From NCBI GenBank assembly GCA_036277635.1, contig DASUMP010000043.1, positions 1-50,872 on the forward strand: DNA of 50,872 nucleotides, written 5' to 3'. Position numbers and translations under genes: made by a program. A model generated the notes under the pieces. That model had not been told where the DNA came from, made no database searches, and saw only the letters and a list, made by a program, of their open reading frames with translations. This document shows, in pieces, positions 21,489 through 31,818 of this stretch (positions are counted from its first letter, which is position 1; every line of letters starts with the position of its first letter). This DNA is from Acidimicrobiia bacterium. GTDB taxonomy: Bacteria > Actinomycetota > Acidimicrobiia > IMCC26256 > PALSA-610.

Positions 21489-22016
21489 ATGCGGTTGCCG
21501 AGACGGGGTCCCGTCCTCCACCATCGGTCGGTGCCCGTCGACCAGGTCCGCCTCCTCCCCGATCCCGAGCAGCGCGGCGTGCTCGCCGCGACGCTCGAGC
21601 GCGTGAACCGCGCCAGCAACTCGGCGCGCGCCGCCGCCCTCCAGCGCAACGTCTTCAGCGGTCCGCCGCTGCGCGACCTGGTGCGCGACGAGGTCGAGCG
21701 GGCGAAGCTCCCCGCCACGCTGACCCGACCCGTCACCGAGCGCGTCGAGGCCGCGCTGCGCCGGCGCGCCGGCAAGCAGGCGAAGTTCTCCACCTACCAG
21801 TCGCTGACCCTGCCGCCCTCGGCGCACAAGTGGCCGGGCAGCGACCGGGTCACGCTCACGACCGCGGCCGGACGCCGGACGATCGCGGTGCGTGTCGATC
21901 CGTCGCGCGGCGACCTGCGTCCCCCGCTCGACGGCCGACCGGTCCACCTCGTGTTCCGCAACGACGAGTTCGAGCTCGTCGCCGCCGACGTCGAGCCCGA
22001 CGACGACGAGGACTGA
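21489..22016 (+). CDS. TnpB (IS605 OrfB/IS1341-type) N-terminal-like protein lacking the RuvC and zinc-finger domains (relic or domesticated fragment)
   Basis: 175 aa. VDQVRLLPDPEQRGVLAATLERVNRASNSARAAAL resembles the TnpB start (xxRLxPxxxQxxxLxxxxxxxRxxxN). KFSTYQSLTLPP....DRVTLTTAAGRRTIAVRV and LVFRNDEFELVAADVE resemble the WED strands that run into the first RuvC motif (..GVDxG). The ORF stops there. Confidence 0.45.
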   Translation: MRLPRRGPVLHHRSVPVDQVRLLPDPEQRGVLAATLERVNRASNSARAAALQRNVFSGPPLRDLVRDEVERAKLPATLTRPVTERVEAALRRRAGKQAKFSTYQSLTLPPSAHKWPGSDRVTLTTAAGRRTIAVRVDPSRGDLRPPLDGRPVHLVFRNDEFELVAADVEPDDDED

Positions 22017-22122
22017 TCGGACCGCCACTGGCGCGGGCGGTCGACGAACGGTCCGAGGGCCCTCGACGCTGCGCCGACCGGCGACGTACGGTCGGACGAC
22101 TCGGGGATCCGGGGGAGGCCAC

Positions 22123-23517
22123 GTGGCAGACCAAGAGCGGTTCACCGACCGGATGAGCGACCAGGACGCGCTCATGTGGAACATCGAGAAGGACCCGGTC
22201 CTGCGCTCGACCATCCTCGCGGTCGCGTTCCTCGACCAGGCCCCCGACTGGGCTCGCCTCGTCGACCGCTTCGATCGCGCGACCTTGCTCATCCCCCGCC
22301 TGCGCCAGCGGGTCGTCTCGCCGCCGTTCCGTCTCGCGCCGCCGAGCTGGTCGGTCGAGCGCGACTTCGACCTCGCGTTCCACATGCGCCGGTTCCGCGT
22401 GCCGCCGCCGGGCGATCGGCGAACCGTGCTCGACATGTTGCAGCCGATGGCCGCGGCGAGCTTCGATCGTGCCCGGCCCCTGTGGGAGTGCACCCTCCTC
22501 GAGGGACTCGCCGACGACGGCGCCGCGATCGTGCTGAAGGTGCACCACTCGGTCACCGACGGTGTCGGCGGCATGGAACTGCTGTTGCACCTCATCGACC
22601 TCGAGCGCGACGCGACCGACCCGGACGACCGGCCCGCGGTCCCCGCCGCCGACGACACGGGCGCGCTGTCGCTCGTGCGCGACAGCGTCGGCCACACCGG
22701 CCGGCGCGTGCTCGGCATCGCGCGCCGAACGCCCGCCACCGTCGCGCGCGGCGCGCTCGACGCGGCGCGCGACCCGCTCGCCGCCGCGGTCGGCAGCTAC
22801 ATCACGGGTCGCTCGATCGCGCGCACGCTCGCGCCCGCGATGCGTCCGATGTCACCCGTGATGCTCGAGCGCGGCCTCTCGCGCCGCCTCGATTCGCTCG
22901 ACATCCCGATCGACGACCTCAAGCGCGCCGCGAAAGCCGTGAACGGCAGCCTCAACGACGCGTTCGTCGCGTCGGTGATCGGTGGGCTCGCGCGGTACCA
23001 CGCCCGTCACGGCACCCAGCCCGAACAGCTGCGCATGACGATGCCCATCAACATCCGCACCGAGTCGGACGCGCCGGCCGGCAACCAGTTCACCCCGGCA
23101 CGATTCCCGGTCCCGGCGACGATCGCAGACCCGAAGGAGCGCATGCTCGCGGTCGGTGAGATCGTGCGCGGGTGGCGCGCGGAGCCTGCGCTCGCGCTCA
23201 CCGGAACGCTCGCCGGAGTGCTGAACCGTCTCCCGACGGTCGCGGTGACCGCGCTGTTCGGCTCCATGCTCAAGTGCTGCGACTTCCTCACGACCAACGT
23301 CCCCGGCGCGCCGGTCCCCGTGTACATCGGTGGCGCCAGGGTCGAGCGGTTCTACGCCTTCGCCCCGCCATCCGGCGCGGCCGTGAACGTCGCGCTCATC
23401 TCGCACTGCGACACGTGCTGCATCGGCGTCGTCACCGACACCGCCGCCGTCCCCGACGCCGACGTGCTCATGGAGTGCCTCCGCGAAGGCTTCGCCGAGG
23501 TCATCGCCGTCGGCTGA
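22123..23517 (+). CDS. Wax ester synthase / diacylglycerol acyltransferase (WS/DGAT) family protein
   Basis: Active-site motif HHSVTDGVGG (HHxxxDG), and SLNDAFVASVIGGLARYH. Start placed at GTG 22123 (GGGGGAGG upstream); ATG 22153 is an alternative. The upstream part of track ORF 21892..23517 was rejected. Confidence 0.85.
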   Translation: MADQERFTDRMSDQDALMWNIEKDPVLRSTILAVAFLDQAPDWARLVDRFDRATLLIPRLRQRVVSPPFRLAPPSWSVERDFDLAFHMRRFRVPPPGDRRTVLDMLQPMAAASFDRARPLWECTLLEGLADDGAAIVLKVHHSVTDGVGGMELLLHLIDLERDATDPDDRPAVPAADDTGALSLVRDSVGHTGRRVLGIARRTPATVARGALDAARDPLAAAVGSYITGRSIARTLAPAMRPMSPVMLERGLSRRLDSLDIPIDDLKRAAKAVNGSLNDAFVASVIGGLARYHARHGTQPEQLRMTMPINIRTESDAPAGNQFTPARFPVPATIADPKERMLAVGEIVRGWRAEPALALTGTLAGVLNRLPTVAVTALFGSMLKCCDFLTTNVPGAPVPVYIGGARVERFYAFAPPSGAAVNVALISHCDTCCIGVVTDTAAVPDADVLMECLREGFAEVIAVG

Positions 23518-23520
23518 CCG

Positions 23521-25225
<1,705 letters not shown>

Positions 25226-25259
25226 CGCCGCGCGGTCGGCGCGTCGAGACTGGCCGACG

Positions 25260-26723
25260 ATGACCACCGACACCGACCGGGAGCGCACGGCGGCCGTCAC
25301 GATCCCGGATGGGCTGGTCGCGGTGGTCAAGCGCGACTGCCCCACGTGCACGACGGTTGCTCCCGTGCTCGCGCAGCTCGCCAGCGCGGGTGCGCTCACC
25401 GTGTTCACCCAGGACGACCCCACGTTCCCCGAGGGCACGAACCCGGTCGACGACCGCAACCTCGCGGTGTCGTTCGCGCTCGACATCGACACCGTCCCCA
25501 CGCTCGTGCGCATCGAGGGCGGCGCGGAGACCGCCCGCACCGTCGGCTGGCTGCGCAGCGCGTGGGAAGAGATCACAGGCGTCGCCGGTCTCGGTCCCGA
25601 CCTGCCCGAGTACCGGCCGGGCTGCGGGTCGCTCACCCAGGACCCCGTCGTCGTCGACCGGCTCCTGGTCGAGCGCACGGTGCCGTTGCTCCGGGCGCGT
25701 CGGGTCGCGCTCGGCGCCGACGAAGACGTGCACGAGGCGATGGACGCACGCGGCTGGACCGACGGCCTCCCCGTCGTGCCGCCCACACCCGAGCGAGTCG
25801 CGCGCATGCTCGCGGGAACGACGCGCGCTCCCGACGACATCGTGGCGGTCGTGCCGCCCGATCTCGTCGAGTGCACGGTCGAGAAGGTCGCGATCAACGC
25901 AGTGATGGCCGGCTGCCGCCCGGAGTACCTGCCGGTGGTGCTCGCGGCGATCGAAGCGGCGTGCACCGACGAGTTCAACATGCACGGCTTGCTCGCGACC
26001 ACGTGGTTCGCGGGTCCAGTGGTGATCGTGAACGGCCCCGTCACGCGCGCGATCGGCATGAACTCCGGGCTGAATGCGCTCGGTCAGGGGAATCGCGCCA
26101 ACGCGAGCATCGGGCGCGCGCTCCAGCTCACGGTGCGCAACGTCGGCGGCGGCCGTCCCGGCGAAGTCGACCGCGCCACGCTCGGCAACCCGGGCAAGTA
26201 CACGTTCTGCTTCGCCGAACGTGAGCACGACTCGCCGTGGGAGCCGTTGCACGTGGCGCGCGGCTTCGCGCCCGACCGGTCGACCGTGACCCTGTTCGCG
26301 GGCGAAGGCGTGCGCGGCGTGGTCGACCAGCTCTCGCGCGAGCCCGAATCGCTCACGCGCTCGTTCGCCGCGTGCCTCGCCACAGTCGCGCACCCGAAGC
26401 TGCCGATCGTCTGGGACGCGTTCTTGGTGGTGTCGCCCGAGCACGCCCGCGTGTTCCGCGACGCCGGGTGGTCGCGTCAACGCCTGACCGACGAGATCAA
26501 CGCCATCCTGCAGCTCGACGGCGAGCAGTTCGTCCAGGGCGCGGGCGGCATCGCCGAAGGGATGCCCGAGGCGTTCCGCGCCACGACCCTGCCGAAGTTC
26601 CGCACCGGCGGCCTGCAGATCGTCCACGCCGGCGGCACCGCGGGTCTGTTCTCGGGCATCATCGGCGGGTGGGCCAGCGGTTCGGTCGGCAGCGAGATCG
26701 TGACCCGAGAGGTGACCAGATGA
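25260..26723 (+). CDS. Thioredoxin-fold (CPTC) domain fused to a ~370-aa domain of unknown function
   Basis: 487 aa. N-terminus: LVAVVKRDCPTCTTVAPVLAQL...DIDTVPTLVRIEGG (thioredoxin-like). Remainder (GWTDGLPVVPPTPERV, NAVMAGCRPEYLPVVLAAIEA, GQGNRANASIGRALQL) is not recognised by me. The stop overlaps the next ATG (ATGA). Confidence 0.7.
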   Translation: MTTDTDRERTAAVTIPDGLVAVVKRDCPTCTTVAPVLAQLASAGALTVFTQDDPTFPEGTNPVDDRNLAVSFALDIDTVPTLVRIEGGAETARTVGWLRSAWEEITGVAGLGPDLPEYRPGCGSLTQDPVVVDRLLVERTVPLLRARRVALGADEDVHEAMDARGWTDGLPVVPPTPERVARMLAGTTRAPDDIVAVVPPDLVECTVEKVAINAVMAGCRPEYLPVVLAAIEAACTDEFNMHGLLATTWFAGPVVIVNGPVTRAIGMNSGLNALGQGNRANASIGRALQLTVRNVGGGRPGEVDRATLGNPGKYTFCFAEREHDSPWEPLHVARGFAPDRSTVTLFAGEGVRGVVDQLSREPESLTRSFAACLATVAHPKLPIVWDAFLVVSPEHARVFRDAGWSRQRLTDEINAILQLDGEQFVQGAGGIAEGMPEAFRATTLPKFRTGGLQIVHAGGTAGLFSGIIGGWASGSVGSEIVTREVTR

Positions 26724-27229
26724 GCGAACTCCTCGACCCCACGTCGGAGCGGTCGGCGGCACTGCGCGAGCGGGCGCCTCGACCCGAGTCGCTCGCCGGT
26801 GTGCGCGTCGGGCTGCTCGACATCTCGAAGCCGCGCGGGGCGGTGTTCCTCGACCAGCTGCAGTCGCTGCTCGAAGCGCGCGGCATGACGGTCGAGCGGT
26901 TCTCGAAGCCGACGTTCACGAAGCCCGCGCCGCTCGACCTGCGCCACGAGATCGCGACGAAGTGCGATGTCGTGATCGAAGCCCTCGCCGATTGAGGGTC
27001 GTGCACGTCGTGCAGTGTGCACGACTCCGTGAACCTCGAAGCCGCCGGCATCCCCACCGTGTTCGTCGCGTCGAGCGAGTTCGTCGACGCGGCCGACGCG
27101 CAGTCGCGCTCGCTCGGCGCCGACCCGGCGCGGGTGTTCGTCGCGCACCCGATCCAGGACCGCACCGACGCCGAGCTGGTGGCGCTCGCCGACGCGGCGC
27201 TCGACGAGCTCCTCGCGGCGCTGCGCTGA
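26720..27229 (+). CDS. UGSC-motif selenoprotein (in-frame TGA at 26993-26995 read as selenocysteine); 169 codons
   Basis: Track ORFs 26237..26995 and 27017..27229 are in the same frame. Read-through gives MSELLDPTSE...CDVVIEALAD-U-GSCTSCSVHDSVNLEAAGIPTVFVASSEF.... A SECIS-like hairpin starts 3 nt after the TGA. The gene is tightly coupled to both neighbours. Confidence 0.75.
26998..27025 (+). promoter_or_regulatory. SECIS-like stem-loop immediately downstream of the in-frame UGA
   Basis: GTCGTGCAC (26998-27006) pairs perfectly with GTGCACGAC (27017-27025). The 10-nt loop is GUCGUGCAGU. The stem is extendable by G:U and G:C (26996-27027). Confidence 0.65.
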
Positions 27230-27232
27230 CCT

Positions 27233-27937
27233 GTGCTGTACCTCCACGAGGTCCACACCGTCGCCGGGCGGTCGGAGGACGCGTTCGCGGCCGTCTTCCG
27301 CGATCGGTGGCTGCCGGAGCTCGCGCGCGATGTCGACACGCGACTCCTGTACTTCCTGCGTCAGACGTTCGCGACCGGACGCGCCTACCACGTCGTCACG
27401 ATCACCGCGGTGCGCGACGGCGCCGCGTACGAGCGACTCGCTCGACGGGTGCAGCGGGGCGACCTGCGAGCCCTCGCCGCCGACACCGACCGTCTGCGGC
27501 ACGAGGTCGCGGGCAAGCTGCTCCTCCCCGTCGAGTGGTCACCGTGCGTGGAGCACGATCTCGCGTCGGTCCCGACCGACGCCGCCGAGCACGACGCGAC
27601 GTTGTTCCTCGAGGACAGCGCGTGGCCGCACGAAGACAAGCTCGACGACTACGTCGACGCCGCGCGCACGCACTACGCGCCGAGTCTGGAACAGCGCGAC
27701 GAGCGCTCGCTGCTCACGCTCGAGGCCGTGTGGCAGGCCGCACTCGGCGCACCGCGCCGTCGCGAGGTGGTGCTGTGGCAGCGCGTGGATCATCCCGAAC
27801 GGCTGCCGGCGCTGTTCGCGCGCGACCTGCCCGAGGAAGTGCGGGCGCCGGGCACGTGGATGCACGACGCGCTGGCCGTGCGCGACGACTGGGAGAGCAA
27901 GCTGTTGCGCACGGCGACCTGGTCGCCGCTGCACTAG
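27233..27937 (+). CDS. NIPSNAP-like / dimeric alpha-beta-barrel two-repeat protein
   Basis: 234 aa. MLYLHEVHTVAGRSEDAFAAVFRDRWLPELA...YHVVTITAVRDGAAYERL, with a second similar half. GTG start 4 nt after the selenoprotein stop. The family call is from general resemblance only. Confidence 0.5.
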   Translation: MLYLHEVHTVAGRSEDAFAAVFRDRWLPELARDVDTRLLYFLRQTFATGRAYHVVTITAVRDGAAYERLARRVQRGDLRALAADTDRLRHEVAGKLLLPVEWSPCVEHDLASVPTDAAEHDATLFLEDSAWPHEDKLDDYVDAARTHYAPSLEQRDERSLLTLEAVWQAALGAPRRREVVLWQRVDHPERLPALFARDLPEEVRAPGTWMHDALAVRDDWESKLLRTATWSPLH

Positions 27938-27959
27938 CGCCGAGGCAACGCCGCCGGCG

Positions 27960-29108
27960 TCAGTCCCAGGCGGTGCCGCCGATCTTGCCGCCGAGCTCGG
28001 GGCACTCGCCGGCGAACACGCCCCACGAGCACTCGAAGCCGGGCACGACCCACGCGTGCACCATCCAGATGTCTTCGAGCGGGTTCTTCTCGCCGCCGAG
28101 CGCCTTGCACTCCTCTTCGGTGGTGTTCTCGCCGCCGACGACGAGGCCACCCTGCAAGCACAGACCGCCGTTCGCGTTGTGCTGGTGCCACCGGTCGTTC
28201 GGACCCGCGAAGCCCTCGGGCGCGCCACCCGGGTGGTACACGAGGTAGCTGAGACCGACGATCTTGGAGTCGGGATCGGTGCCGTCGTAGAGCAGCTCGG
28301 ACGGCGCCGCCGGATCGAAGACCGGGACGCGCGAGATGTTCGTGTAGTGCGCGCCGATGCACGGCACGTAGACGGTCGACTTGTGGTAGCCGCCGGCCTC
28401 GGCGTCGGCCACGGTGGGGAACTCTTCGATCACTTCGCGAGCCGCCGCCATCTCGTCCATGAGCTGGAGGCGTTCGGCAGTCGTCAGGTTCTCTTGCACG
28501 ACCATGCCGCGGATCTCGCCGTGGCCGTCGCCCGTCTGACCCGGTGACGCGGGGTCGCCCGACTGCTCGCACGGGGAGTCACCCGTGGCGGTCGCGGCGA
28601 TGATGTCGCCGTGGTCGCCGCCGTCGATCAACCCGGTCTCCGGATCGACGCCACCGTGCTCGGCGTGGTCGTCGGCCATGCCGTCGTCGCCGCCGGCCCC
28701 GTCGTCACCGTGCGCGTGGCCGTGACCGTCGTCGGCGCCCGCCGCGACGTCGCCGCTCGTCCCCGAACCTTCCGCCAGTCCGGTGTCACTCAACACCGCG
28801 GCGCTCGCGGCGATGAGCGCGACGGCCGCGAGCGGCGCGCCGACCTGGAGCAGGCGACGAGCGGGCGTCGCGCCATCGGCGCTCGTCGCGTAGAGGGACG
28901 CGCCGAAGAACATGAGGAGCACACCGAGGATCGCGACGACGATCCCACCGAAGAACACCGCGTGCGCGAGCGAGTTCAGCTCGAGCACACCCTCGGTCGC
29001 CGCGAGATCCGCGTCGTCGGCGTGTCGGAGCGCGTCGGCGAGCATGCCCACGACCATCGCCACCGCGCCGACGCCGACCATCGACGTGCCGACCTTGCGA
29101 ACGTCCAT
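27960..29108 (-). CDS. Membrane-anchored extracytoplasmic protein with a His/Asp-rich linker and a conserved His/Trp/Cys-rich C-terminal domain (paralog of 34912..35772)
   Basis: 382 aa from ATG 29108 (AGGGGGG upstream). Three N-terminal hydrophobic segments. Linker DDGHGHAHGDDGAGGDDGMADDHAEHGG. C-domain motifs IGAHYT, GPNDRWHQH, IWMVHAWVVPGFEC. Upstream part of track ORF 27960..30563 rejected. Confidence 0.7.
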   Translation of the reverse strand: MDVRKVGTSMVGVGAVAMVVGMLADALRHADDADLAATEGVLELNSLAHAVFFGGIVVAILGVLLMFFGASLYATSADGATPARRLLQVGAPLAAVALIAASAAVLSDTGLAEGSGTSGDVAAGADDGHGHAHGDDGAGGDDGMADDHAEHGGVDPETGLIDGGDHGDIIAATATGDSPCEQSGDPASPGQTGDGHGEIRGMVVQENLTTAERLQLMDEMAAAREVIEEFPTVADAEAGGYHKSTVYVPCIGAHYTNISRVPVFDPAAPSELLYDGTDPDSKIVGLSYLVYHPGGAPEGFAGPNDRWHQHNANGGLCLQGGLVVGGENTTEEECKALGGEKNPLEDIWMVHAWVVPGFECSWGVFAGECPELGGKIGGTAWD

Positions 29109-29179
29109 CGAGTCCCCCCTCGGAATCCGTTCCGACGCCGGGGCGCGCTCGCGCGACCGCCGACCGCCGTTGGATCCCG

Positions 29180-30403
29180 TCATCCTACGCCGCCCGCCGG
29201 CGGCGCCTCCGCGCGGCCGTCTCGAGCTGCGCCGGCGACGCAGGCCGCGGCCCGGCTCGCGATGCCGGAGGTCCGGCGCCACTCGCGGAGGCGGTGCTGG
29301 TCGTGGTCGCCGGTCAGGTAGGCGAACGACAGGCCCGTGGCCGGGTCGGCGAAGGCGATCTGGCCACCGGCACCGTCGTGGCCGAACGCGGCCGGCGAGA
29401 CGGTGTGCCCGAAGCCCCGGCGCGAGGCGCGGCCGTCGGCGCCCGCGACGATCAGTGCGCGGGTGCGGTTCGCCGGCGTCCCGACGTAATCCGGGAGCGA
29501 GGTACGCACCCGGCTCGTGATGTCGGCGAGCACGTCGGCGCCGAACACACCGTCCGGATCGTGCAGCAGCGCTTGGTAGAAGCGCGCCAGATCGGCCGCG
29601 TCCGACGCGGCGCCCGCACCGGGCACGCCCAACGCGCGCGTCTGCGGGTCGTTGAACGCGACGATCGATTCGGCGGTGACCTCCGTCGGCGGCATCGACG
29701 GAACTCCGAGCACGCGAGCGAGCTCGTCGCGGTCCATCGGCGCTCCGACCGGCACGACCGGTTCGATGTCGGCCTGCTGCTCGAGCGGGACGCCGAGCTG
29801 GAGCCGGGTCAGCCCGAGCGGTTCGAGCACGCGCGCCCGGACCGCGTCGCGGAAGTCGGCACCGTCGATGCGCTCGAGCAGCTCGGCGAGCACCCAGTGC
29901 GCCGACGACGCGTGGTACAGGTAGCCGGTGCCGGGCTCGGAGGTCAGCCGCCAGCGCGCGAACGCGTCGAGACGAGCGGACCGGTCGAACCACTGGGGCG
30001 GGCCGAGCGGCGCCATCGGGAACCCCGACGTGTGGAGCATCACCTGCTCGACGGTCACGACGTCCTTGCCGTTCGTCGCGAACTCGGGGATGTACTCCAC
30101 GACGCGTGCGTCGGGATCCAGCGCACCCTCGCCGATGAGCTGACACAACGCGCTCGCGACGACGGGCTTGGTCGCCGAGAAGATCATGAAGCGCGCGTCG
30201 GCCGGTGCCGCACCGAGCGTGACCTGCAGGAGCACCTCGCCGTGGCGAGCGAGCGCGAGCTGGCACGACGTGAGGGGCCCCTCGTCGATGTCGCGCTGCG
30301 CGCGCTCGACGAGCGCGGCGACCTTCGCGACGTCGAGGCCGGCGGCGACGGGATCTTCGAGGAAGGTGAGATCGGCGAGATCCCGTGACGGCGTGTCCGA
30401 CAT
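29180..30403 (-). CDS. Serine hydrolase, beta-lactamase / PBP4-type esterase family
   Basis: 407 aa from MSDTPSRDL.... Contains the SxxK motif (FMIFSATKPVVA) and YHASSAHW. Confidence 0.8.
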   Translation of the reverse strand: MSDTPSRDLADLTFLEDPVAAGLDVAKVAALVERAQRDIDEGPLTSCQLALARHGEVLLQVTLGAAPADARFMIFSATKPVVASALCQLIGEGALDPDARVVEYIPEFATNGKDVVTVEQVMLHTSGFPMAPLGPPQWFDRSARLDAFARWRLTSEPGTGYLYHASSAHWVLAELLERIDGADFRDAVRARVLEPLGLTRLQLGVPLEQQADIEPVVPVGAPMDRDELARVLGVPSMPPTEVTAESIVAFNDPQTRALGVPGAGAASDAADLARFYQALLHDPDGVFGADVLADITSRVRTSLPDYVGTPANRTRALIVAGADGRASRRGFGHTVSPAAFGHDGAGGQIAFADPATGLSFAYLTGDHDQHRLREWRRTSGIASRAAACVAGAARDGRAEAPPAGGVG

Positions 30404-30459
30404 TGGACCCGGAGCGTACGACGGGCCGCCCGGCGCGGCCGCGGCGCGAGACTGCTCCC

Positions 30460-31818
30460 GTGGCGGAGTCTCCCGGCGTCTGGGCACCGGAGCGCCGCGC
30501 ACTGACCACGGGCCTCGTGCTCACGATCACGCTCGTGGCGTTCGAGGCCCTCGCGGTCTCCACGGTGATGCCCGAGGTGCAAGCCGACCTGCGCGGACTC
30601 GCCTGGTACGGCTGGGTCTTCTCGGGCTTCTTCCTCGGGCAGCTGCTCGGGATCGTGATGGCCGGTCACCAAGCCGATCGTCGCGGCCCGGCGGCGCCGT
30701 TCGCACTCGGGCTCGCGATGTTCGTGGTCGGGCTCCTCATCGGCGGCTTCGCCGTCTCGATGCCGATGCTGGTGCTGGGTCGCGTCGTGCAGGGGCTCGG
30801 CGCGGGCGCGATCCCCGCGACGGCGTACGTCGCCGTCGGACGCGCGTACGCGCCCGAGCTCCAACCCCGGGTGTTCGCGGTGTTCTCGACCGCGTGGGTC
30901 GTCCCGGGGCTCATCGGACCGGCGCTCAGCGGTGCGGTCGCCGAGGCGTTCTCGTGGCGCTGGGTGTTCCTCGGCCTGCTCCCGCTCGTCGCGGTCGCGG
31001 GCGTGATGGCGCTGCCGGGGCTCCGCGCGCTCGCGCCCGCCGAGCGGAGCAGCGAGGCGCCGAGGTACGGCACCGCGCTCGCCGTGACCGCGGGTGCCGG
31101 GCTCGTGTTGGGGGGCATCGGGAGCGGCAACGTGGCGCTCGCGGTCGCCCTTGCGGTCCCCGGCGGCGTGCTCGCGACCCGGGCGTTCATGCGTCTGGTG
31201 CCGGTCGGCACGCTGCGCGCCGCGCCGGGGCTGCCCGCCGCGGTCGCCGTGCGCGGGATCCTCACGTTCGCGTTCTTCGGCGCCGACGCGTACGTGTCCC
31301 TCGCGTTCGTCGACGTCCGCGGCACACGGCCGTGGGTCGCCGGACTCGCGCTCACCGCCGCGACGCTCGCGTGGACTTCGGGCGCGTGGGTGCAGGAGCG
31401 ACGCGTTCGCGTCGCCGGGCCACGACGCCTGGTGCGCGAGGGCTTCGCGTTGCTCGTGGTCGGGATCGCGGGCCTCGGCTCGGTGCTGTTCGAGAGCGTG
31501 CCGATCCCCGTCGCGATCGCGGTGTGGGGAATCGGCGGACTCGCGATGGGACTCGCCTACGCGCCGCTGTCACTCACCGTGCTCGCGTCCGCCGCACGCG
31601 GTGAGGAGGGCGCAGCCGCCGCGTCACTCCAGCTCTCCGACGTGCTCGGCGTGGCGCTCGGCACCGGAGCCACTGGCGCCGCGGTCGCGGTCGCCGACGC
31701 CCTCGATCGGGATCCTCGCGCCGCGCTCCTGGTGGCGTTCCCGGTCATGGCCGCCGTCGCCGTGTTCGGCGCGCTCGTCGCTCGTCGGCTCCCCGAACAT
31801 CTCCCCGACGCGCGCTGA
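30460..31818 (+). CDS. MFS transporter
   Basis: 12-14 TM pattern. VMAGHQADRRGPAAPF is the MFS loop 2-3 motif. Start set to GTG 30460, because the track start 30385 would overlap the divergent beta-lactamase start. Confidence 0.8.
   Translation: MAESPGVWAPERRALTTGLVLTITLVAFEALAVSTVMPEVQADLRGLAWYGWVFSGFFLGQLLGIVMAGHQADRRGPAAPFALGLAMFVVGLLIGGFAVSMPMLVLGRVVQGLGAGAIPATAYVAVGRAYAPELQPRVFAVFSTAWVVPGLIGPALSGAVAEAFSWRWVFLGLLPLVAVAGVMALPGLRALAPAERSSEAPRYGTALAVTAGAGLVLGGIGSGNVALAVALAVPGGVLATRAFMRLVPVGTLRAAPGLPAAVAVRGILTFAFFGADAYVSLAFVDVRGTRPWVAGLALTAATLAWTSGAWVQERRVRVAGPRRLVREGFALLVVGIAGLGSVLFESVPIPVAIAVWGIGGLAMGLAYAPLSLTVLASAARGEEGAAAASLQLSDVLGVALGTGATGAAVAVADALDRDPRAALLVAFPVMAAVAVFGALVARRLPEHLPDAR

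Follow-up and report, generated by a model that had tools for sequence, protein, structure and literature searches.

Which proteins does a selenoprotein of the UGSC family work with, and what might they do together? The family has been catalogued and is functionally orphan (PMC1976440, PMC2398784, PMC9312934, PMC13188914), and the question is raised by a locus in a 50,872-nucleotide stretch of DNA from an Acidimicrobiia bacterium (GenBank assembly GCA_036277635.1, contig DASUMP010000043.1), which at its full length is called the window here. At positions 25260 to 27937 three plus-strand genes are packed together: g1, encoding a thioredoxin-fold (Trx-fold) module fused to a large domain that we call X; g2, encoding the UGSC protein; and g3, encoding a hypothetical protein. 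A preliminary description made from the sequence alone had read the three as one operon for a selenol/thiol redox relay. The coordinates, the ATGA overlap and the 3-nt gap that it gave are right to the base (Table 1), the CPTC motif is present at residues 27-30 of g1, and the g1 peptides that it quoted were all located (GWTDGLPVVPPT at 165-176, NAVMAGC at 213-219 and RANASIGRA at 279-287). Our analysis shows that the pair g1 and g2 is a module and that the triad is not. We consider the chance somewhat better than even, at about 0.55, that the two proteins are the subunits of a selenol/thiol oxidoreductase that is self-contained and brings its own thioredoxin.

The pairing was examined from both sides. 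A profile of X was run against one genome per species and the best 80 loci were kept (related loci carry the prefix L here). UGSC lay directly downstream on the same strand in 77 of them, and the remainder consisted of one locus with UGSC divergently upstream, one in which the contig ended inside UGSC and one in which it ended at the stop codon of X. All 79 informative genome loci carried the pair, with UGSC within ~500 nt of X. When a UGSC profile was run against metagenome contigs, X was found directly upstream of UGSC in 74 of 80 loci (74/77 informative), the others being three with less than 300 nt of upstream DNA and three without X. The carriers belong to the Actinomycetota, Pseudomonadota, Chloroflexota, Acidobacteriota, Myxococcota and Nitrospirota and include metagenome-assembled genomes labelled Spirochaetales. 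Whether the Trx-fused protein accompanies UGSC across genomes, as the preliminary description had asked, is answered in the affirmative by these counts together with the fusions described below, and g1 and g2 are a very strongly conserved two-gene module. Rare exceptions are the TGA-form UGSC genes of L150 and L157 (and L138), which have no X in the 4.5-5 kb before them or in the 2.5-3 kb after them.

UGSC and X also occur in one polypeptide, in 23 of 233 X-family proteins (~10%), with the order UGSC-X in 20 and X-UGSC in three. Fusions that contain selenocysteine (Sec) appear truncated at the UGA by gene callers, and the full-length ones carry cysteine and read CGSCTSW. A Global Ocean Sampling (GOS) study of 2008 mentioned a "UGSC/Unknown_1" fusion (PMC2398784), and Unknown_1 is most likely X. 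The preliminary description was right that the combination has no characterised function, yet the UGSC family and a fusion of UGSC with an unknown domain had been noted in that same study. Nothing sets g2 apart from the UGSC family; what is new here is the near-obligate partner X and its thioredoxin and redoxin fusions, of which we found no prior description in the literature searched.

The assignment of g2 to the UGSC family is unambiguous by profile, with 156.8 bits against Pfam PF24696 (cut-off 25; E 7.7e-46) and 157.5 bits against the NCBIfam equivalog NF041046 (cut-off 125; E 2.2e-46), and scores so far over the curated cut-offs bear out the earlier call of a UGSC selenoprotein. Residues 88-98 read ALAD-U-GSCTSC, and the frame runs on for 77 codons past U-G-S-C-T-S-C. 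For a comparison of the Sec codon, the UGSC gene was extracted from 161 related loci of genomes and metagenomes, in all of which the N- and C-terminal halves are in frame and exactly one codon apart. The intervening codon reads TGA 158 times; the three TAG cases are those of Blastococcus massiliensis (L011), Geodermatophilus sp. (L076) and G. obscurus DSM 43162 (L082; ALAD*GSCTSC), which retain the downstream hairpin. In Geodermatophilaceae the tRNA-Sec is known with a CUA anticodon, and UGSC proteins that use UAG have already been listed there (PMC5330540). Among the 161 loci TAG thus stands at the UGSC site exactly in the family that reads UAG as Sec, which provides an independent confirmation of Sec decoding.

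The hairpin itself (GUCGUGC-AGUGU-GCACGAC) has a 7-bp stem, a 5-nt loop and an 11-nt spacer after the UGA, and it is present in the centroid fold. Over 156 distinct sequences from many phyla, all seven pairs are 97-100% paired, and covariation is seen at three of them: pair 4 is G-C in 131 sequences, G-U in 21 and A-U in 4, and rare double changes occur at two other pairs. Synonymous sites are frozen in the hairpin: entropy at the third codon position lies at 0.00-0.20 for six of its seven codons and reaches 0.63 for the His codon, whose third position is the covarying stem site, compared with 0.8-1.8 at flanking codons of equal conservation. From this geometry and selection signature we identify the hairpin as a bacterial selenocysteine insertion sequence (SECIS) element; no Rfam family matches the region. 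On comparative sequence data of this kind, we regard Sec decoding at the TGA of g2 as genuine. No tRNA-Sec and no selA were found within the 50-kb window. The genes selA and selB adjoin the X-UGSC pair in 10 of 84 loci, which fits UGSC being a principal selenoprotein of those genomes. SelA was recognised by PF03841 (4e-156) and SelB by its wing and beta-barrel domains; selA lies just downstream of UGSC in L020, L039, L052 and L073, selA-selB lies just upstream of Trx-X in L040, L055, L058 and L059, and selA/selB adjacency was also seen in L048 and L083. Loci of the Ilumatobacteraceae type show strings of the form selA-selB-TrxX-UGSC. Weak matches to Pfam DUF116 (PF01976) were obtained with 7 of 15 UGSC proteins (best E = 0.043).

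The N-terminus of g1 was modelled and aligned with its relatives. Among more than 8000 homologues, 35 were sampled from the best matches (67-88% identity) for the alignment. The AlphaFold2 (AF2) model of the full-length protein has a predicted local distance difference test score (pLDDT) of 85.8 and a predicted template-modelling score (pTM) of 0.83, and Foldseek matched residues ~15-107 at probability 1.0 to many thioredoxins, CcmG and DsbD partners, with target-normalised TM-scores of 0.5-0.6 and root-mean-square deviations (rmsd) of 2.5-4 A. C27 and C30 of CPTC and T78-T81 (TVPT) are invariant in the 36 homologues. The score against TIGR01068 is 15.5 bits for a cut-off of 96.8, and PF00085 (thioredoxin) gives no match on g1 at E <= 0.1. 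As modelled, the N-terminus is a divergent Trx-fold module and not a thioredoxin proper. Such fusions recur in the family, given that 82 of 233 X-family proteins carry CPTC, CATC or CETC in fused Trx or redoxin modules. The linker between module and X has a cysteine, C122, that is invariant in 36 Trx-X proteins, and its GC[GAS] motif is found in 75 of 79 X-family members with an N-terminal CxxC extension. The module is absent from the close relatives L010 (2737-3762), L101 and L125, which are 74% identical in X and in which X begins directly after serC, so the module can be lost while the pair stays.

Domain X could not be assigned in the preliminary description, and it resisted assignment here as well. 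For X, neither the window protein nor any of 13 diverse relatives matched a Pfam or NCBIfam model when E was relaxed to <= 10, and X had no counterpart in the Protein Data Bank (PDB), whose sequences were all searched with phmmer and with a profile. Structure prediction and Foldseek, which had been suggested for this domain, were run and returned no confident match to a well-characterised enzyme: the full-length g1 model gave thioredoxin matches only, the X-only model (pLDDT 88.3) gave a best match to class I fumarate hydratase at a TM-score of 0.28, and the viral library gave no match with the X model. The fumarate hydratase match (class I, Fe-S; Leishmania and Methanocaldococcus enzymes, N-terminal domain) aligns ~360 columns of X at E ~1e-3 and probability 0.6-0.8, with a TM-score of 0.26-0.30, an rmsd of 14 A and 10% identity. 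We rejected the assignment of X to this class on the TM-score of 0.28 and on the lack of a Fumerase Pfam match. An Fe-S cluster in X was likewise rejected, given that there are two conserved cysteines (C219 and C317) and not three ligands, and a Toblerone-fold or YjgF-like assignment was rejected at Foldseek E > 0.01. C219 sits in a helix-turn-helix of the X model. Pyruvoyl self-processing at G218-C219, by analogy with GrdE/PrdA, PanD and PSD, was not adopted, X having no homology to pyruvoyl enzymes.

The X family is large (5678 clusters at 50% identity) and occurs alone (~350 aa), as tandem X-X (~715 aa), behind a CxxC Trx or redoxin module and fused to UGSC. Residue conservation was measured across 233 diverse members, and the resulting pattern resembles that of an active site: C219 is conserved at 97% and C317 at 93%; D168, P171, N281, R286, E320 and G458 at 98-100%; and T176, T248, R279, N294, K313, E322, W327 and H395 at 90-97%. 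In L004 a stand-alone X, 41% identical across the X domain, has UGSC directly behind it, L167 probably does too, and the redoxin-X forms have UGSC 1-5 kb away (L003, L165, L166). A second X paralogue lies in L003 (12820-13650; profile E = 1e-114), ~2 kb downstream of UGSC, in a locus that also has a redoxin-X. In three distant loci (Table 1) a gene for a ~450-aa protein with no Pfam match stands just ahead of redoxin-X or stand-alone X in divergent orientation, and its product may be an additional partner in these subfamilies.

Two known kinds of system invite comparison with the pair. The UxxCxxC motif defines GrdB/F/H (PMC6778437, PMC13188914), the selenoprotein B group, and g2 shares it as U92-G-S-C95-T-S-C98, following a beta-strand as it does there. 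Nine of 15 UGSC members match the GrdB model TIGR01917 locally (best E = 1e-4; model positions 333-374 of 431), fewer match GrdF, GrdH, the generic selenoprotein-B model or PrdB, and the GrdB, GrdF and GrdH matches of the window UGSC fall around the Sec site. The Pfam selenoprotein B family (PF07355) has no UGSC match, and a PDB sequence search with UGSC and its profile returned no GrdB/PrdB or other informative chain. GrdB has ~435 aa and PrdB ~240 aa, whereas UGSC has 169 aa, and the cut-offs of the selenoprotein-B families stand at 600-800 bits. We read the similarity as a shared redox motif or possible remote homology, and not as membership. No grdA/C/D and no GrdE/G/I or PrdA partner genes were present in the neighbourhoods listed. 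The loose glycine/proline-reductase analogy of the preliminary description gains some support from the motif and the nine weak GrdB matches; the partner X has no GrdE/PrdA similarity.

What X-UGSC would have in common with the selenoprotein-B reductases is the motif, a two-subunit gene arrangement and, as proposed for X-UGSC, dependence on a thiol reductant. The Sec subunit of grd and prd operons is encoded beside a larger partner subunit. The hosts differ, those of X-UGSC being mostly aerobic Actinomycetota, Pseudomonadota and Chloroflexota, and those of selenoprotein B being amino-acid-fermenting anaerobes. Glycine reductase depends on thioredoxin (PMC13188914). As for g1, its N-terminal CxxC Trx-fold, fused to a protein whose oxidised cysteine (or possibly Sec) would be re-reduced, is reminiscent of PilB-type proteins, and so is the fact that the module is dispensable in cis, as the stand-alone X forms show. 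X is unrelated to methionine sulfoxide reductase (Msr), and the redox centre would be split onto a second, Sec-containing polypeptide. The Trx-MsrA/B of Neisseria PilB is a reductase with a covalently fused Trx-fold recycling module.

We propose that UGSC serves as the selenium-bearing redox subunit, in which Sec92, backed by Cys95 and Cys98, would be the reactive centre. X would be the large partner subunit that binds the substrate and/or performs the chemistry through C219 (NAVMAGC), C317 (FCFAE) and the invariant polar residues. The CPTC module, probably by way of the linker Cys122, would re-reduce the selenenylsulfide or disulfide formed in each turnover, and free cellular thioredoxin would recycle the centre where the fused module is missing. 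We infer that the two proteins form a physical complex and that the relay runs in this direction and order. Several points weigh against this proposal. The catalytic role of X is suggested by its conservation pattern, with no similarity to an enzyme or to GrdE/PrdA, and X and its 13 relatives have no match to any Grd or Prd model of Pfam or NCBIfam at E <= 10. The window UGSC scores 15.4 bits against GrdB, over ~40 residues only, for a cut-off of 602. The fused Cys forms have lost the third cysteine, so the UxxCxxC triad is not universal, and three of the 77 informative UGSC loci have no adjacent X, an absence confirmed by profile search. The neighbourhoods of 84 loci give no consistent clue to a substrate, since none of the other neighbours is present in more than 25% of them. 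Reviews up to 2026 state that the function of UGSC is unknown (PMC13188914, PMC1976440).

A bolder form of the oxidoreductase proposal, which we hold only tentatively, is that X and UGSC constitute a new and widespread selenoenzyme, with X as a catalytic subunit of new fold, and that this enzyme would resemble the selenoprotein-B reductases as a distant analogue in miniature. The hosts would then be mostly aerobic soil and freshwater bacteria, in which the Sec/Cys centre and the built-in thioredoxin would drive a reductive reaction. The surroundings of the pair were clustered over the same 84 loci. Leaving aside X, UGSC and the open reading frames antisense to them, no neighbour occurred in more than 20 of the 84, and those seen included a metallo-beta-lactamase-fold protein, an alpha/beta hydrolase, an HhH-GPD glycosylase, a MaoC dehydratase, selA and selB. 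At L004 (500-10100), X and UGSC stand amid hydantoinase A and B, an ABC transporter with an NMT1-type binding protein, an amidase and an FAA-hydrolase-family protein. Of all the neighbourhoods, this apparent catabolic cluster alone gives a hint of a small nitrogenous substrate.

Two other divisions of labour between X and UGSC have to be weighed against the oxidoreductase proposal. UGSC alone could be the effector, as a small peroxidase-like protein or a thiol:disulfide oxidoreductase, with X as its recycling reductase, docking scaffold or chaperone; electrons would pass from Trx to the X cysteines and on to UGSC, and no substrate chemistry would take place on X. The two near-invariant cysteines of X and its repeated CxxC fusions are what a relay protein would have, the variable gene neighbourhood fits a general antioxidant role, and UGSC was suggested in the GOS study to adopt a Trx-like fold and to have a redox role (PMC2398784). 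However, the 365 aa of X, with more than 15 near-invariant polar or charged residues besides cysteine, go beyond what a simple relay normally needs, tandem X-X proteins occur, and the stand-alone X of L004 sits with UGSC in the catabolic cluster of hydantoinase A/B, amidase and ABC transporter genes, so we judge this division of labour unlikely. We give still less credence to a role in handling selenium or a soft metal or metalloid, in which the U-x-x-C-x-x-C motif would chelate or carry Se, Hg, As or Cu and X would be an insertase or carrier, for instance delivering selenium towards SelD. A motif with three chalcogens could plausibly chelate, a CobQ/CbiA-like gene adjoins UGSC in L003 and L165, and selA and selB directly adjoin the pair in some loci, but the latter linkage is equally expected if UGSC is the main selenoprotein there. 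Moreover, the 84 loci show no consistent linkage to metal-resistance genes, transporter genes or selD, the third cysteine is lost in the fused forms, and the SelD/HypE-type Foldseek matches are insignificant (E ~0.1-0.2, probability <=0.16).

Two further alternatives concern the genes and not the chemistry. If the TGA of g2 were a true stop, g2 would be two unrelated small open reading frames or a pseudogene, adjacent to g1 by chance. Gene callers do split the gene at TGA in all public contigs examined, but this reading is refuted by the two conserved, in-frame halves one codon apart in 161 loci, the nucleotide-level selection on the SECIS hairpin, the existence of full-length Cys homologues and the status of UGSC as a curated selenoprotein family. 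The other alternative is the three-gene functional operon of the preliminary description, with a NIPSNAP-like g3 as a dedicated third redox component, which synteny largely refutes and which we consider very improbable. Co-transcription of g3 in the host is likely, given the 3-nt gap and the shared strand, and g3 stands directly after UGSC in 3 of 80 genome loci (L001, L007 and L010) and in 10 of 80 metagenome loci, all of them closest relatives. Against its being part of a functional unit, 77 of the 80 genome and 70 of the 80 metagenome loci have the pair without g3, L005 has g3 ~4 kb from the pair, and homologues of g3 occur only in a single actinobacterial clade, the Acidimicrobiia-type Actinomycetota. 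In L169 and L170, furthermore, a 72%-identical g3 directly follows serC (with a gap of 4 nt in L169) at a locus without X or UGSC, which indicates that g3 belongs to the flanking synteny and not to the module. Of the earlier reading of g3 as a two-repeat NIPSNAP-like protein, the NIPSNAP likeness survives weakly, below threshold and in the first half (19.3 bits against PF07978, cut-off 22.3, residues 15-104 only; no match at E <= 0.001), and the repeats are not demonstrable by sequence, given that the halves have no significant mutual similarity (E = 0.079).

The flanks of the pair tell the same story for serC, which ends 34 nt before the start of g1. The gene order WS_DGAT - serC - [X - UGSC] - g3 - conserved minus-strand gene, traced by tblastn, is common to the window, L001, L007 and L010; a beta-lactamase-fold gene beyond the minus-strand gene was found in the window and L001 and had no match in L007 and L010. 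Compared with window positions 21900-30500, L169 and L170 carry the block WS_DGAT - serC - g3 - beta-lactamase-fold gene without X-UGSC. Since the same block exists with and without X-UGSC, the pair behaves as a cassette of two genes that may be present or missing at the serC-g3 junction. We therefore read g3 and serC as neighbours of the module and not as components of it, and the adjacency to serC, which had been thought probably coincidental, proves to be local synteny and no more. A recent gain of the cassette by horizontal transfer was considered and is not supported, given that its G+C content, overall and at third codon positions, is the same as in the flanks. A gene that converges on g3 (window 27960-28900, minus strand) was found in the same place in L001, L007, L169 and L170, with 60-67% identity over ~120-145 aa. 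A promoter and terminator scan of 23400-28400 gave nothing above shuffles, and it is uninformative on operon boundaries in a high-GC host.

Table 1. Features of the g1-g2-g3 locus and of three related loci (window coordinates unless a locus is named).
Feature	Position	Strand	Remarks
serC-like class-V aminotransferase	~24098..25225	+	PF00266; upstream flank
g1	25260..26723	+	ATG start, 487 aa; Trx-fold module fused to domain X; basis open reading frame
Trx-fold module of g1 (residues ~1-107)	25260..25580	+	Foldseek and invariant motifs
CPTC (g1 residues 27-30)	25338-25349	+	
cis-Pro loop TVPT of g1	25491-25502	+	
Domain X (g1 residues 121-487), ~365 aa	25620..26720	+	
Linker cysteine C122 (RPGCGS), between Trx module and X	25623..25625	+	
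X cysteine C219	25914-25916	+	
X cysteine C317	26208-26210	+	
g2	26720..27229	+	UGSC-family selenoprotein, 169 aa; ATG overlaps g1 stop as ATGA
In-frame TGA, Sec codon (g2 residue 92, in U-G-S-C-T-S-C)	26993..26995	+	
SECIS-type hairpin	27007..27025	+	stem 27007-27013 / 27019-27025, loop AGUGU 27014-27018
g3	27233..27937	+	GTG start, 234 aa hypothetical; starts 3 nt past g2 stop
~450-aa divergent gene	L003 4622-5974	-	
~450-aa divergent gene	L165 5622-6977	-	
~450-aa divergent gene	L167 5246-6595	-	

In summary, UGSC ranks with the most abundant selenoprotein families of prokaryotes in metagenomes and has gone ~20 years without a function. The near-obligate partner, the repeated fusions and the two-gene cassette make the question of its function experimentally tractable, and the unit to express, mutate and assay is X together with UGSC rather than UGSC alone. 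Cultured carriers are available in Geodermatophilus obscurus DSM 43162, Pseudonocardia bannensis and P. lutea, and X is itself a large uncurated domain family of >5600 clusters at 50% identity. If X and UGSC do constitute a new selenoenzyme, an orphan selenoprotein family that is among the most abundant would gain a function, and this would explain why the Sec machinery (selA-selB) is kept beside the pair in some genomes.

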